A DNA stretch of 64,000 nt, taken from the sequence record MK327935.1. The stretch is one strand, 5' to 3'. Shown here piece after piece: positions 3,853-57,111 of this stretch (position 1 is the first letter of the stretch; each line of letters begins with the position of its first letter). Source of the stretch: Escherichia phage vB_EcoM_G2494. The notes beneath the pieces were generated by a model that saw only the letters and a program-made list of their open reading frames with translations, was not told the origin of the DNA and made no database searches. The translations under genes and the position numbers were made by a program.

Positions 3853-4605
3853 ATGAGGTGTTTTATGATTAAAGTGCATGACGATTTCAAAGAACTTTAT
3901 AATGTATGCTCTGAACGTTTTTATTATGATGAAACGAGCGGAACAATTAGACGAAAATATGATTGTAAGAGCAATCATTATAAAGCGGGTGATGTAGTAG
4001 GATATAAAAGAAAACAAAAAAGAACAAATAGTGAAGATGATGTGTTCTATATGTTTACTAAGATTGATGGAGTTTCTTATTCAATTCAACAAATTGTCTT
4101 CTTGCTTACCGAAGGGTATATACCCAATTGCATCGATCATATTAACAGAGACACACTAGATAATCACCGTGAAAATCTTCGTGATGCATCGCGAAGCGGA
4201 AATGCTCGCAATAAATGCAAGGTATATAAAAATGGTTTCGCCTCTTCCGATTACATTGGTGTGTCTAAGCGGGGTTCTGGATTTAGGTGTCGTATTAGAA
4301 TAGACCATGTTATTGCATATGATGAAACGTTCGAAAATGAAACATCTGCCGCATATGCATATAACGTAGAATGTATAAAATTAGGTGTCAGTGAGTATAC
4401 CAACTTTAATAAATTTGAAGACGAAGAATCTGTTAGGAAACTTTACGAAAAAGAGAAAGAAAATAAAGAGTTTCAAGAATATTGGAAGGGAACACATAAA
4501 CAGGGTAAACGATGGGGCGCTAAAGTTAAGAGTGTGCGTTTGGGTACATTCGAAACAAGGGAAGAAGCTAGACTAGCTATAATTCGCTACAAAGAGGGGT
4601 TTTGA
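3853..4605 (+). CDS. free-standing HNH homing endonuclease with AP2-type DNA-binding domains
   Basis: HNH motif [18 protein letters not shown]; AP2-like segments [15 protein letters not shown] and [23 protein letters not shown]; inserted between gp5.1-like and gp5.4. Confidence 0.8.
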
Positions 4606-4898
4606 TGGCTGGTTTATCATATGACAAAGCAAAAACTACTGGACATGGTAATTACGGTCCGACAATAATTAATGCAACTCAATCTAAGGTATTTGTTGAG
4701 GGTATCCCTGTATTAGTCGAAGGAGACCCAATTACACCACATACAAAAACAACAAAGCCTTATGATACACACGGGGGAACTACGGTCGCCAGTACCCCGA
4801 AAGTATTTGTTACCGGAAAGAAAGCAATTCAAATGGCAGATCGTATTAGCTGTGGCGATACCGTCGCTATGGCATCACCGAAGGTATTCATAAAATGA
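4602..4898 (+). CDS. 5.4: PAAR-type spike tip protein gp5.4
   Basis: 98 aa, Gly/Thr/Pro/Val-rich, sits between gp5 region and gp6 as T4 gp5.4. Confidence 0.7.
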
Positions 4899-6799
4899 CA
4901 AAGCAAAAGATTACACAAATTCCTGATATTTTTAATGCTGCTACATTCGATGAAATTAAAAGCGCATTAACAGACTGGATGAGAAACCAGGAAGAATTTA
5001 AAGATTTTGATTTTAATGGTGCTGGTATTAACGTATTGATGGACTTGCTCGCATATAACACTCTGTATATTCAGCAATTCGCTAACGCCGCGCTATATGA
5101 ATCTTTTATCAGAACGGCAATTAAGCGTAGTTCAGTTGTTCAAGCCGCGCAAGATTTAGGATATTTGCCAGCAAGTAAAACTAGTGCATCGACCACAATT
5201 ATGTTGCACGTATCACATCCGCGAAATCCGGCAAGTATTCGAATCCCACGAGGAACTAAATTTATTGCAAGTGTGGATCGCCAGACTTCTTACCCGTTTG
5301 TGACTACAGAAGACGTTGTGAGCGTTTTAGGTTCAAATGGTTTATATACGCCTATGCTTAAAGTCGCACAAGGTCGTATTGTTCGTACAGAAATGTTATT
5401 TGATCCGAAGAAACAAATTCTGATCCGTGATCCTGATATTGACCGCGCTCAGGTTAAGTTGTGGGTAGATGGTGCTGAATGGAAAGACTGGACACGAGAA
5501 AGCATTGTTAACGCAACTGGCGCTAGTAATATTTTCTATATGCGTGAAACCGTAGACGGTCATACAGAAATCTTCTTTGGTGAAGGTGAATCAACTTTAT
5601 CTGCTGCTGGCGGGGCGCTGGAAGCAAATTATATTGGTGGACTTAAGCCGTCAACTGGTGCTAATATTGTTATCGAATATATTAGCACTAAAGGCGCGGA
5701 AGCAAACGGTTCAGTTAATTTTACATATGCGGATACCCTTGCATCTATCTCTATTGTTAAAATTATTGAGAATCCGACAAATGATCGTGATTATGTCGGT
5801 GCAGATGGTGGTGGTGATCCTGAATCAATCGAACGTATCCGTGAACTTGCTCCGGTAATGCGTGAATCTCAGCGTCGTTGTGTGACTGCTTCCGACTATG
5901 AGGCTTTTGTGTCTAGCCGTTTTGGTAGTATTGTTCAGGCGGTACAATGTTTCACCGACCGAGAAAAACCGGGTTATGCTTTTGTTGCTGTTAAGCCTAA
6001 ATCTGGCTTGCGCTTGACAACCGTTCAAAAAGAAGATATGCGGGATTATCTGGCAAAATATAACCTTGCCCCTATCACGCCGAGCATCATTGACCCTAAC
6101 TATCTGTATATTAAACAGAATATTAAAGTTTCCTATTCAATCAACGACTTGTCAGAATCAGAGCAGTGGTTGCGCGGTGCGGTTATTGATCAGATTGATG
6201 CATATTATACCGACGAAGTGGAAATTTTTAACCAGACCTTTAGTAAGTCTAAAATGCTTGCGCGTATTGACAAAGCTGATGTATCTGTGATAGGTTCTAG
6301 TGCAGAAATCGAGATGGTGCGCGAGATCGACAACTTCTATAAAGCACCGATGGCGGGAATCAAGTTTTTAAACCAGTATAAGAGCGGAATCAAGTCTAGT
6401 TCATTCAACTTCGAAAAGGACGACAAGCAATATCCGATCCATTATGTAAGTACAGAAATGAACAAAGAATCAGGTTTAGCTAAATTGTTGGTTGGACCTT
6501 TCCCTGTTGATTCTACAATCGCTTTACCGCACTATTCCGGCACTGATTTTGATAAAGAGGTTATTGACGGGGCGGACCTATACTTTGAGGTTGGAGAAGT
6601 TCAGCATTATGACGACCTTATTTCATGGGATCTGGGTAAACTGAATATCAATAGCGATCGCTTTACTGGTTCATATATTGAGTTGACAGCTAAACCGATT
6701 GCTGATAACATCTTTACTAAAGACGGTTCTTTGATCGTGTTTGAAAACGATCTCCGTCCTCAGTACACAACTATTAGTCTGGAGGCAATTGCTCAATGA
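4895..6799 (+). CDS. 6: baseplate wedge subunit gp6
   Basis: 634 aa; long conserved blocks vs T4 gp6 ([50 protein letters not shown]). Confidence 0.9.
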
Positions 6800-53990: not shown

Positions 53991-54005
53991 GTTATGTCAA
54001 CAACT

Positions 54006-54185
54006 TTTAGAACATTTTTGAAATTAATTCTGCTTTGATTTCGCAGAGAACATCTAAAGATTTCTCGTCACCCGCTTTTGCTGCTTCTGCTTGCATTTTT
54101 GAAATGGCTTCAATCTCAGTGCAATTATAAGCCGCTTGAACTTTAGCGATTGCGAGGATTGCCGATTCGATGGTTAAGTGTTTTA
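54006..54185 (-). CDS. small early ORF lacking a canonical start codon (ATA where paralogous contexts have ATG)
   Basis: conserved RBS GGAGAATCAAAC then ATA AAA CAC...; 60-codon open frame; early promoter upstream. Confidence 0.3.
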
Positions 54186-54217
54186 TGTTTGATTCTCCTT
54201 TCGTTTCGGTATGTGTG

Positions 54218-54246
54218 TATTATAGGGGATCGATGATCCCCTGTCA
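54218..54246 (-). promoter_or_regulatory. sigma70-type early promoter with palindromic spacer
   Basis: TTGACA-ggggatcatcgatcccc-TATAAT on minus strand. Confidence 0.65.
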
Positions 54247-54255
54247 ACAACTTTT

Positions 54256-54810
54256 TTAGTTATTTTTTAATTGCTCATCTTGCAATAGGGCAATCACATG
54301 CTGGCGATGTTCTTCCGATTGAGGCACACCGAAAAAGTTTGTTTTGTAGAAATACTCTAATCGGTCTTCTCGTGTGCTCTCTTCCATCATGATCGCGGGT
54401 AGTCCGAGATTTCGGAAACGTCGCTTTTCTGCTGGCGTAAAATCACTGTAATACATCATAGAATCATCATTACCAGCAATGCTAAACTCATCCTTCATGA
54501 AGGAGAATATTGCGTTTAAACGCTGTTTACCGTCCACGATTTCGATCTCATAGCGAGAGCCATCATCAATCTTAGCCATTGCGATAGCACCAACCGGAAA
54601 ATCATTAATCAGGTTTTCGATAAACATACGTTTGTTTTCGGTGTCCCATACTAAAGGACGCTGATAATCTGGGTTCATGTTGATATAGCCATCTTCTAAC
54701 CATGCATCATAAACAGAGATGACAAAGTTTTTAGTATTGGTATAGTAACGGCGTTTAGGCGTTAAACGGTTCATGTTATAGTCTCCTGAATGGATCATCA
54801 CGTAAATCAA
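54256..54810 (-). CDS. DUF262 / ParB-like nuclease-domain protein
   Basis: 184 aa; NPDYQRPLVW ... IVDGKQRLNAIFSF match the DUF262 N-terminal and DGQQR-type motifs. Confidence 0.55.
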   Translation of the reverse strand: MIYVMIHSGDYNMNRLTPKRRYYTNTKNFVISVYDAWLEDGYINMNPDYQRPLVWDTENKRMFIENLINDFPVGAIAMAKIDDGSRYEIEIVDGKQRLNAIFSFMKDEFSIAGNDDSMMYYSDFTPAEKRRFRNLGLPAIMMEESTREDRLEYFYKTNFFGVPQSEEHRQHVIALLQDEQLKNN

Positions 54811-55105
54811 TATCTTTTAAGAACTCATCCCATGAATGGCGGATATTGTTCTTAATTCTCCAGATAAGAGCAGGGATTGAACGCTCTCCCATCTGGAAGT
54901 ATGGATCATATGATCCGTATGCCCAATATGCTACTACAATTCCACAATCAGCGCAATAGTATTCTATTTCACTTGCTGGCGACAAAAGTCCATCAATATG
55001 ATCGGTGATCTTGCTTTCGATGTTATGGCTATGACAATCAGGGCAACGGATGCAATGACCTTGTTTATCGTAATTTGATGTTAGTGAATACTTAAACAAT
55101 CTCAT
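54776..55105 (-). CDS. zinc-ribbon protein
   Basis: 109 aa; CIRCPDC...CADCG. Confidence 0.45.
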   Translation of the reverse strand: MRLFKYSLTSNYDKQGHCIRCPDCHSHNIESKITDHIDGLLSPASEIEYYCADCGIVVAYWAYGSYDPYFQMGERSIPALIWRIKNNIRHSWDEFLKDIDLRDDPFRRL

Positions 55106-55821
55106 TATAGATCCTTATTTGCTTCAAATACTGCCTTTGCGAATCCTCGCGGGGTAAGTGACCTTATAGTCTTTGTTTTCGTTCCTTTCCCGCCTAGCTT
55201 AGAATGCTGTTTACTGTACCCTTTATTAATCTGCAACGGTTTCTTTTCTGGCATTATAAAGCCTTGTCCGGTCCATAAGCAAGTCTTTTTTGGGTACATA
55301 TCACGGGCGGCAATATACTCAGGAAACGTAGGATGCTTATCATCTTCCGGCAAATAACCGCCATATTCCCACGGATGGAACATATAATCAGGCTTACGCC
55401 ACATGCTAGAGATAACGCTTACAGGATTCTCTATCATGTAGGGAACTCCTAGCCATTCACCCAAATAAGCGGTTATTTTGGCTGCCCTTACATCATGAAC
55501 TTGAATCAATGGTCCTTGTTCTCGTTTCTTTCGTTCAAAGTGCGCAGCGCCACTAACAGCTAAATTGGTGCATGGTGGGAATGCAAAGATAATATCCGGT
55601 TTCCCCCATTCAAGGTCCATTGCTCTTTCTAGCCAGTTAAAATCAATCCATGTGTTTACATAGGTAATGTTTGGATGTTCAAATCTGGTATTATACTTTT
55701 TGTATGTTCCGTGGTCGCCATCGTCAGCATTAAAGCAGATCACCTTATGACCTGCTTTAGCCCATTCTAACCCCATTATCCCCGATCCGTCAAAGTTACA
55801 GAATATTAATTTTTGTTTCAT
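55105..55821 (-). CDS. C5-cytosine methyltransferase-like protein (divergent, short)
   Basis: 238 aa; motif I-like FCNFDGSGIMG, motif IV-like FAFPPCTNLAVSG (PCT instead of PCQ), motif VI-like YMIENPVS, C-terminal RSLTPRGFAKAV; no obvious target recognition domain. Confidence 0.45.
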   Translation of the reverse strand: MKQKLIFCNFDGSGIMGLEWAKAGHKVICFNADDGDHGTYKKYNTRFEHPNITYVNTWIDFNWLERAMDLEWGKPDIIFAFPPCTNLAVSGAAHFERKKREQGPLIQVHDVRAAKITAYLGEWLGVPYMIENPVSVISSMWRKPDYMFHPWEYGGYLPEDDKHPTFPEYIAARDMYPKKTCLWTGQGFIMPEKKPLQINKGYSKQHSKLGGKGTKTKTIRSLTPRGFAKAVFEANKDL

Positions 55822-56063
55822 ATACGCCCCTTTAATCCAACACAGATTTTAGAAGGTTCTTTGCCGTGCCACATTAAGTAAAGTCCGTTAATGCGGCCTT
55901 GTTTTGTATATGATTCTTTTCTGATCTTCTTATAGTGTCGTGCTTCCTCAGCCGATTGTTTAGAATACCAATCATAAAGGAAGAGGCACAAAGGCCACCC
56001 ATTAGCGGCCTTAATGCAGTTATTAAGAAATTCCTTATTGCGTTTAATTAATTTTCTTTTCAC
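55818..56063 (-). CDS. hypothetical early protein
   Basis: 81 aa, overlapping start/stop with neighbours (operon). Confidence 0.4.
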   Translation of the reverse strand: MKRKLIKRNKEFLNNCIKAANGWPLCLFLYDWYSKQSAEEARHYKKIRKESYTKQGRINGLYLMWHGKEPSKICVGLKGRI

Positions 56064-56311
56064 GCTGCCCCCATTGGTTTGATAGTAACAGAATCTAAAA
56101 GACCTTTGTTAGCCAGTTCGCGGCAAGTTTTCAGATCCGCAACTTCCCAGCCAGCCGCAATCAGGTTATCAATGAGGCTGTTAGCAACTTCTTCGCTCAT
56201 GAAAGAGCACTGTTTGCCGATGGTGTAGCGTACACGCTGTAATTTCAGTTTACGGAAGCCTTTAACGTTCAGGTCTTTAGCGATTTTCTTTGCGGTTTCG
56301 ATGTTAGCCAT
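56060..56311 (-). CDS. hypothetical early protein
   Basis: 83 aa, first gene behind the promoter at 56352-56380. Confidence 0.4.
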   Translation of the reverse strand: MANIETAKKIAKDLNVKGFRKLKLQRVRYTIGKQCSFMSEEVANSLIDNLIAAGWEVADLKTCRELANKGLLDSVTIKPMGAA

Positions 56312-56351
56312 TGTTTGATTCTCCTAAGTGGTATCTCGTCTTGATGGTTGT

Positions 56352-56380
56352 ATTGTAGGGGAGTTATCCTCCCCTGTCAA
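56352..56380 (-). promoter_or_regulatory. sigma70-type early promoter with palindromic spacer
   Basis: TTGACA-ggggaggataactcccc-TACAAT on minus strand. Confidence 0.6.
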
Positions 56381-56394
56381 CACTTTTTATAAAA

Positions 56395-56562
56395 TTATTT
56401 GTTAATTTCCGGTGCGTTGCTTGGATAGTAACCTTCTTTAACACCCAGGTATTTCGCAACCATCCCTACAATCTTCTGTGCTACTACAATGTCAAATTTC
56501 AGATAATCTTCGCCGTGGGTTTCAATGATATATGCTTCACATGCTGCTTTAGTCTCGAACAT
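56395..56562 (-). CDS. small early protein (55 aa), paralog of 60188..60355
   Basis: MFETKAACEAYIIETHGEDYLKFDIVVAQKIVGMVAKYLGVKEGYYPSNAPEINK; below ORF-track cutoff; conserved RBS GGAGAATCAAA. Confidence 0.5.
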   Translation of the reverse strand: MFETKAACEAYIIETHGEDYLKFDIVVAQKIVGMVAKYLGVKEGYYPSNAPEINK

Positions 56563-56595
56563 TTTGATTCTCCTATTTCGTTTCGTTATGTGTGT

Positions 56596-56624
56596 ATTAT
56601 AGGGGATCTCCCGATCCCCGTCAA
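56596..56624 (-). promoter_or_regulatory. sigma70-type early promoter with palindromic spacer
   Basis: TTGACG-gggatcgggagatcccc-TATAAT on minus strand. Confidence 0.6.
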
Positions 56625-56637
56625 CAACTTTTTAAAA

Positions 56638-57111
56638 TTATTTGCACCAAATTCGAATGATTTCGTCTCGTTCAAATTTTTGCCAGATTACTCGGTCGCC
56701 CGCTGCCATAATCCTGACAAATCCAGTTATATTTCCGGTGTACTTGCTTTTAGTTTCTGCATCATATTCAAAGAATGGAGCTTTAAGATCGCTAAACTCA
56801 TCTTTTCCCACAAACTTCATAACATGACGGTGTGCGTAATATTCGCTTCTTAGTGTTGTTGTGATAGTTCCGTCATCATTTGATTTCAGATGCAATTCGG
56901 CATCTTCATAAAGACTTGCATCTCGTTGTTTACTTTCGATACCATCATTATATGTTGATTTGGTTGCACTCCAACATTGATATGTCTTATCTACATTTTC
57001 GATCTTTTCCTGTGTCATGTCAAAAAGCGGCGCAACCTTTTTCTTAGCCGCGTGCGCAACGTTGGTCATAGACAGTGCCGCAACAACCGCAATAGCAATA
57101 ATTTTCTTCAT
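56638..57111 (-). CDS. secreted/periplasmic protein
   Basis: 157 aa; N-terminal signal peptide MKKIIAIAVVAALSMTNVAHA. Confidence 0.55.
   Translation of the reverse strand: MKKIIAIAVVAALSMTNVAHAAKKKVAPLFDMTQEKIENVDKTYQCWSATKSTYNDGIESKQRDASLYEDAELHLKSNDDGTITTTLRSEYYAHRHVMKFVGKDEFSDLKAPFFEYDAETKSKYTGNITGFVRIMAAGDRVIWQKFERDEIIRIWCK

Follow-up and report, generated by a model that had tools for sequence, protein, structure and literature searches.

An early gene cassette of an RB49-like coliphage predicted to encode a compact Dcm-like C5-cytosine methyltransferase and a DUF262 protein that are probably not a functional pair

We analyzed a group of five minus-strand genes at positions 54256-56380 of a 64,000-nucleotide stretch of DNA (the window) from Escherichia phage vB_EcoM_G2494 (sequence record MK327935.1), two of which encode a protein with the motifs of C5-cytosine methyltransferases and a protein related to DUF262. 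The explanation that we favor, with a probability of about 70% for the whole, is that the locus is a single early cassette, bounded by promoter early stem-loops (PeSLs), in a hyperplastic region with accessory-gene shuffling of an RB49-like (Krischvirus) coliphage, and that an early site-specific C5 methylase stands there beside an independent DUF262 accessory protein with which it was brought together by shuffling. The cassette, the promoter type and both protein families were already known–for example, in near-identical genomes RB49p189 is annotated as 'DNA methyltransferase' (RefSeq) and the last gene as 'DUF262 domain protein' (phage W115)–and what remains is the role of the nuclease-less phage DUF262 proteins.

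The methylase gene (55105..55821, minus strand; RB49p189) encodes a protein of 238 amino acids that, judging from its motifs and predicted fold, is a compact C5-cytosine DNA methyltransferase and a member of a widespread phage 'Dcm-like' family. Its motif I is F10-D-G-S-G14, its catalytic residues are C84 (in FPPCT) and E131 (in ENPVS), and it has a lysine pair (K177/K178) and a C-terminal IRSLTPRG motif followed by a helix. An alignment of 39 homologues shows little or no variation in the elements FDGSG, FPPCT, ENPVS, WR, KK-TC-W and LGGK..TK.IRSLTPRG, and none in F10-G14, P82-P83-C84 and E131-N132-P133. The start that gives 238 residues is the conserved one. The records of phages W115 and kaaroe start the gene at an internal ATG (672 bp, 223 amino acids), losing the invariant motif I (window 55777-55821).

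This protein belongs to the PHROGs family phrog_757, 'DNA methyltransferase' (E-value 4e-90), and a search of 5.8 billion proteins placed its homologues in 7,310 clusters, essentially all of them 225-260 amino acids long. A tblastn search of 50,697 phage records detected members of the family in 1,518 of them, including Drexlerviridae, Dhillonvirus, Webervirus, Vequintavirinae, phiKO2 and others. A search of NCBIfam gave no match for the methylase and none for the DUF262 protein. The AlphaFold2 model (pLDDT 90, pTM 0.89) has a fold closest to those of solved C5-methyltransferases, with DNMT3B, an enzyme with a small target-recognition domain (TRD), as its best structural match. In an hhalign comparison with M.HhaI, motif I fell on F18-G23 and Cys84 on the catalytic Cys81; only motifs I-IV aligned, and the IRSLTPRG motif with its helix may be either motif IX or motif X. 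The C5-methyltransferase fold that a sequence-only reading of this DNA had proposed is thus borne out by the invariant motifs and the DNMT3B match.

Canonical C5 DNA methyltransferases (M.HhaI, E. coli Dcm, DNMT3A/B; Pfam PF00145) share with the phage protein the class I fold and, in the same order, motif I (FxGxG), the motif IV PC cysteine and the motif VI ENV glutamate. They differ in that the phage protein is about 90-240 residues shorter, scores under the Pfam gathering threshold, has motifs IX and X merged or reduced at its C-terminus, and has an insert of about 70 residues in place of the separate small/TRD domain. We found no separate TRD between motifs VIII and IX; the insert (roughly residues 143-215), which separates the ENV/WR core from the C-terminal motif, presumably serves as a minimal recognition element. 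The statement of the sequence-only reading that there is no room for a TRD was too strong, as some 70 residues are present and DNMT3B likewise has a small TRD.

A characterized homologue links this family to DNA methylation. The methylase is 57% identical to a 236-amino acid protein of phage egaa (E = 2e-92), collinear over its whole length, and the egaa gene in turn has 94.5% nucleotide identity to the gene for a 'Dcm-like C5 cytosine methyltransferase' of the BASEL phage KarlJaspers. According to a preprint on the Ec86 retron, all mutants of a KarlJaspers-type phage (K42) that escaped it mapped to the 711-bp dcm gene, the Dcm protein was toxic on expression only together with the retron, liquid chromatography coupled to mass spectrometry (LC-MS) detected 5-methylcytosine (5mC) on the multicopy single-stranded DNA (msDNA) of the retron, and a C82A/E128A/K175A/K176A mutant abolished the effect on Ec86 (bioRxiv 10.1101/2023.08.16.553469). 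Counted along the egaa alignment, these four residues correspond to C84, E131, K177 and K178 of the Krischvirus methylase, all of which are invariant. Because the homologue made 5mC and the mutated catalytic residues match invariant ones, the Dcm-like family appears to be one of real, compact C5 DNA methylases, and the view of the 238-residue protein as a methyltransferase-like oddity or decoy gives way to that of a member of a large family with a homologue reported to methylate in vivo. The Drexlerviridae Dcm of KarlJaspers and K42, which triggers retron Ec86 (Eco1), shares with the Krischvirus enzyme its length (about 236 residues), the same catalytic Cys, Glu and Lys-Lys, and its status as an early accessory gene. 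The two differ in setting: the Krischvirus methylase is in a T4-like myovirus with its own neighbors, whereas the KarlJaspers/K42 Dcm is in T1-like siphoviruses with other neighbors. From this homologue we infer the enzymatic activity and target site of the protein in Krischvirus phages.

A different reading of the same protein is that it makes no 5mC in DNA, and instead transfers another group (for example carboxymethyl from carboxy-SAM, a relative of S-adenosylmethionine (SAM), as phage CmoX does), acts on RNA or a nucleotide, or sequesters SAM. E. coli does make carboxy-SAM (PMC12783734), the family is without a canonical TRD and under the Pfam threshold, and there is an invariant Arg225 in the C-terminal motif, which may or may not correspond to CmoX Arg350. 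However, the characterized homologue gave 5mC by LC-MS and required the catalytic Cys, Glu and Lys residues, and the best structural match, DNMT3B, is a SAM-using DNA methylase. Moreover, SPPC together with R350 defines the CmoX family, whose genes are associated with phage cmoA and cmoY (PMC12783734), whereas the protein here has FPPC and no such genes in its operon. We regard this reading as very improbable.

The methylase is not a global modifier of phage DNA; its action is predicted to be site-specific instead. Two published results point to this: the DNA of RB49 is cleaved by the 5mC-sensitive enzymes HpaII and NheI (PMC4041780), and that of phage TB34, which has the same operon at 98% identity, contains no non-canonical nucleosides detectable by high-performance liquid chromatography/mass spectrometry (HPLC/MS) (PMC13390438). 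By our own estimate, sparse site-specific methylation (about 27 CCWGG sites per 64 kb) would probably lie below the sensitivity of the TB34 assay.

The DUF262 gene (54256..54774, minus strand; RB49p187) most likely starts at the ATG at 54774, which has an AGGAG sequence 8 nucleotides upstream and is the start annotated in RB49. It would thus encode 172 amino acids; the length of 184 given earlier comes from a mechanical extension of the open reading frame (ORF) to a TTG at 54810. The identification as DUF262 itself is firm: the protein matches Pfam GmrSD_N (PF03235) with 72.8 bits against a cut-off of 33.2 (E = 5e-20), and it has the ParB/sulfiredoxin (Srx)-like fold. Its motifs are Y37-Q-R..V-W43, D81-G-K-Q-R85 and N146-F-F-G149, in which Y37, Q38, R39, W43, Q84 and N146 are invariant among its relatives, with conservation of at least 90% at D81, G82, R85 and G149. 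A profile of the family matches BrxU (E = 2e-9) with all three motifs aligned. In BrxU and HEC-06 the residues of the DUF262 motifs are used for hydrolysis of nucleoside triphosphates (NTPs), and the same residues are conserved in the phage protein.

An exhaustive HMMER search collected 6,160 DUF262 representatives. The nearest relatives of the phage protein are stand-alone proteins of 160-190 amino acids, or of roughly 270 amino acids with an N-terminal extension, and none of those examined has any other Pfam domain. Full-length relatives with 35-38% identity occur in RB43 (RB43-like), Slopekvirus and other large phages of Enterobacteriaceae. GmrSD-family type IV enzymes (GmrSD, BrxU, SspE, HEC-06) share the N-terminal DUF262 domain of ParB/Srx fold and its QR..W, DGxQR and N..G motifs, but the phage protein ends after this domain, without their linker and DUF1524/HNH nuclease. 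On these grounds it is, as predicted from its sequence, a complete but nuclease-less GmrSD N-terminal domain. A nuclease domain, DUF1524/HNH or otherwise, was found neither in the five proteins of the operon nor in the conserved neighbors of DUF262 relatives, and lacking such a domain the protein cannot alone be a restriction enzyme. Nor do its relatives have a conserved partner directly upstream or downstream: their neighbors vary, and the zinc-ribbon gene that precedes DUF262 here does so only in Krischvirus-like contigs. In Klebsiella phage Matisse (Slopekvirus) a gene for a 304-residue protein without a Pfam domain (4504-5418) follows and overlaps that of the DUF262 homologue, and its product could be a lineage-specific partner; in RB43 the same place is taken by no more than a 41-codon ORF. 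A literature search on stand-alone phage DUF262 proteins found no study.

Could such a protein be an offensive or exclusion factor, a GmrS-like sensor of hydroxymethylcytosine (hmC), glucosyl-hmC or phosphorothioate that works with a nuclease partner against co-infecting T-even-type phages or host DNA, with the methylase unrelated to it? Its nearest relatives are in T4-like phages without an hmC pathway (RB49-like, RB43-like, Slopekvirus), the motifs for NTP hydrolysis of BrxU and HEC-06 are conserved, the PADLOC defence models NsnA (2e-20) and PD-T4-2_A (4e-12) match it, and one homologue is labelled 'DefenseFinder protein'. The absence of a nuclease domain from the protein, the operon and the conserved neighbors speaks against this role, which we consider improbable.

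The methylase and DUF262 genes do not travel together outside Krischvirus in the loci that we compared. We took 80 viral loci from IMG/VR for each family, with flanks of 10 kb. A methylase gene was present at 2 of the 80 loci of DUF262 relatives, and DUF262 or the zinc ribbon was present at 2 of the 80 methylase loci; all of these are Krischvirus, and the other 78 loci in each set lack the partner. Inspected individually, five DUF262 loci had no methylase or zinc-ribbon homologue nearby, and five methylase loci had no DUF262 or zinc ribbon nearby. Most telling is a metagenomic contig (L180, 1-2573; ENA ERZ27254724 k141_110561) that contains, in the same order as the cassette and with 56-73% protein identity to it, homologues of p190, p189.1 (the first two genes), the zinc ribbon and DUF262, with a 46-codon ORF before DUF262 and a PeSL after it. 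The methylase ORF is precisely absent from this contig, where the ATG of the zinc-ribbon gene overlaps the stop codon of p189.1. The contig and the linkage counts together indicate that the methylase is a separable insertion into, or deletion from, an older four-gene cassette. Since each gene occurs elsewhere without the other, an obligate methylase-DUF262 module is disfavored, although some lineage-specific interplay may occur, and by this comparison of gene neighborhoods the two proteins are probably not a functional pair.

The sequence-only reading had suggested that the two, co-located as they are, could be a module, and this deserves to be set out in full. Type IV enzymes of the GmrSD/BrxU type use the DUF262 domain for dimerization and NTP sensing. 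The methylase could mark phage DNA with 5mC, and the DUF262 protein could poison or act as a decoy for host enzymes of this or another type IV kind. The genes are in one operon conserved across Krischvirus, and the phage protein has all three DUF262 motifs and aligns with the domain of BrxU. BrxU cleaves DNA containing 5mC (PMC13390438), hence a C5 methylase brings a type IV liability. One type IV enzyme is encoded by two genes and has a GmrS subunit without a nuclease (PMC12373910), so DUF262-only proteins can enter such complexes. However, the linkage ends at the borders of Krischvirus: the DUF262 relatives of RB43-like phages and Slopekvirus, including those of RB43 and Matisse, have no methylase nearby, the metagenomic contig has DUF262 without the methylase, and hundreds of phages have the methylase without any DUF262. 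An identity of about 16% to the BrxU domain is low for a specific subunit mimic, and TB34 DNA is without detectable modification. We judge a module of this kind improbable. A broader idea, which we also think unlikely even if slightly less so, is that the nuclease-less DUF262 proteins of about 170 residues in T4-like phages without hmC (Krischvirus, RB43-like, Slopekvirus and related phages) are a hitherto uncharacterized class of GmrS-like factors–either dominant-negative inhibitors of GmrSD/BrxU/SspE-type enzymes or sensors against competitors with modified DNA–which in Krischvirus would make up for the exposure to type IV enzymes and retrons that the neighboring methylase creates.

Several observations weigh against our preferred reading of a site-specific C5 methylase beside an independent DUF262 protein. 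The Pfam model PF00145 scores only 14.2 bits on the methylase, against a cut-off of 22 (E = 0.03, residues 10-100 only), and it reaches E ≤ 0.01 in just 6 of the 39 family members (best 1.3e-6). Activity in making 5mC, the target site and the triggering of a retron were reported for the KarlJaspers/K42 Dcm, whereas for the Krischvirus enzyme they are predictions from homology; the CCWGG specificity of the homologue itself comes from a single preprint, where it was deduced by mutating the msDNA motif and not from a genome-wide map. The window has some 3-fold fewer CCWGG sites than expected (27 against about 80 under a maximal-order Markov model applied to positions 1-64000), and full self-protection of these sites would make their depletion unnecessary. 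The strain on which RB49 is routinely propagated, E. coli B (PMC4041780), is the natural host of retron Ec86 (bioRxiv 10.1101/2023.08.16.553469), so the retron is either not triggered by the Krischvirus enzyme or counteracted by the phage. Lastly, the five genes are stably linked within Krischvirus, with 54 of 63 matching records spanning at least 80% of the region, and this linkage is compatible with some functional interplay without demonstrating one.

Under the same Markov model, other sites in the window are scarce too: GGCC occurs 25 times (74 expected), GAATTC 0 times (20 expected), GGATCC once (13 expected), CCATGG 0 times (7.5 expected) and GGTACC 0 times (6.5 expected), whereas GATC is not depleted (374 observed, 344 expected). 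Such strong avoidance of restriction sites is consistent with a phage whose DNA is mostly unmodified and which depends on the loss of sites.

Along its whole length, the region 54000-56700 is 97-98% identical in nucleotide sequence to Escherichia phage RB49 and to some 60 further Krischvirus genomes; its gene order is that of RB49p186-p192, downstream of the alt ADP-ribosyltransferase gene. Most Krischvirus matches end at about 56643 (position 2643 of a 2701-nucleotide query), and those of RB49, MIZ2, MIZ3, MIZ6 and FL38 reach further. From a six-frame list of ORFs and the sequence, the stop and start codons of the five genes overlap or abut. The first gene (56060..56311, minus strand; homologue of RB49p190) encodes 83 amino acids, and its stop codon is overlapped by the GTG start of the second (55818..56063, minus strand; homologue of RB49p189.1; 81 amino acids), which in turn is joined to the methylase gene by an ATGA overlap; the start of the zinc-ribbon gene (54776..55105, minus strand; RB49p188; 109 amino acids) overlaps the methylase stop codon (TAATG), and the DUF262 gene comes last.

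Upstream of the first gene is a PeSL-type early promoter (56352..56380, minus strand) that has 11 of 12 consensus positions, with TTGACA and TACAAT separated by a 17-nucleotide spacer containing a GGGG...CCCC hairpin (GGGGAGGATAACTCCCC), and that corresponds to the PeSL between ORFs 190 and 191 of RB49. The next PeSL (54219..54247, minus strand), a 12/12 consensus promoter with the hairpin GGGGATCATCGATCCCC, is where the cassette ends downstream and the following one begins. The exact hairpin-promoter pattern has 3 copies in the window, where 0.00 are expected, and these elements combine the sigma-70 consensus with a stem-loop of a G-tract and a C-tract; AT-rich DNA lies upstream of them, and a Shine-Dalgarno sequence with a start codon follows just downstream. 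Experiments have shown that PeSLs of RB49 and phi1 act as strong early promoters of the sigma-70 type, as terminators and as sites of recombination, and the one between ORFs 190 and 191 recombined into mini-circles (PMC2839356). The cassette has the same architecture and location as those of RB49 and phi1 (the ORF186-191 region of RB49 HPR3), and we see no difference between them: it is the same system. We found no strong internal promoter or terminator between the two PeSLs, and the arrangement supports the prediction that the five genes form one early transcription unit. Here the sequence-only reading holds, both for the promoter with its five minus-strand genes and for their transcription as a unit.

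The other three proteins of the cassette have less to compare. The zinc-ribbon protein (phrog_2993) has a CxxCxxC...CxxC pattern, with cysteines C18, C21, C24, C51 and C54 that are kept in contig L180, and matches Pfam Zn_Ribbon_TF at 1.1e-4, under the cut-off; homologues are present in Nonagvirus and Felixounavirus phages without an adjoining methylase. Between the zinc-ribbon and DUF262 genes, phage kaaroe (1074-1253), and probably ELT3 and ELT4 also, has an additional 59-codon ORF without a Pfam match, which resembles the 46-codon ORF of contig L180 by placement only. The 81-residue protein (phrog_7065) has a 69% identical homologue in that contig. The 83-residue protein (phrog_14908, unknown function) has only 13 homologues, all short, and is an ORFan confined to close relatives. 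It has a weak PADLOC match to RT_UG35, a defence-associated reverse transcriptase model (E = 2.6e-5, 20.6 bits), in which the matched positions, 722-785 of 938, belong to the C-terminal part. This match is curious in that the neighboring methylase family triggers a retron.

Two further observations concern the flanks of the cassette. Just downstream of the DUF262 gene, phage SAP has a 79-bp tandem duplication of the PeSL (SAP 753-831, corresponding to TB34 position 752 and to about 54250 in the window), which yields a small extra ORF (SAP_052) and accounts for the greater part of the 112 bp by which the SAP and TB34 genomes differ in length. These phages are 99.96% identical, yet SAP DNA contains hmC and glucosyl-hmC and TB34 DNA is unmodified (PMC13390438). 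We considered the cassette as the cause of this difference and judged it insufficient, because its ORFs are identical in the two phages and the duplication is the sole difference at the locus. On the other side, an ORF for 157 amino acids (56638-57111, minus strand), with a signal-peptide-like N-terminus (MKKIIAIAVVAALSMTNVAHA), matches by position ORFan192 of RB49 (RB49p192), which has been described as a mini-circle-forming cassette flanked by PeSLs that phage phi1 lacks (PMC2839356).

The biological roles that we infer for these genes may be pictured as follows. The host sigma-70 promoter would express a compact SAM-dependent C5-cytosine methylase straight after infection. By analogy with its homologue, this enzyme would flip the target cytosine, Cys84 would attack C6 with the help of Glu131, and the methyl group would pass to C5. 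Its target would be a short specific site, CCWGG being the context reported for the homologue. The likely benefit would be protection of phage DNA from restriction enzymes with overlapping sites, at the cost of 5mC marks that systems such as retron Ec86 or type IV enzymes could detect. The DUF262 protein would most likely be an NTP-binding, DNA-associated protein of ParB/Srx fold, acting alone or with other partners, and its adjacency to the methylase would result from cassette shuffling, not from an obligate partnership.

These results correct an over-reading of the annotation, in that an apparently TRD-less, methyltransferase-like protein turns out to be an ordinary member of one of the commonest families of phage methylases. 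They also raise the question of what role a complete DUF262 domain without a nuclease plays in several genera of T4-like phages. For Krischvirus phages, some of which are candidates for therapy, the prediction is that their DNA has sparse 5mC marks rather than being fully unmodified, and retrons of the Ec86 type, or type IV enzymes that depend on 5mC, may sense these phages.

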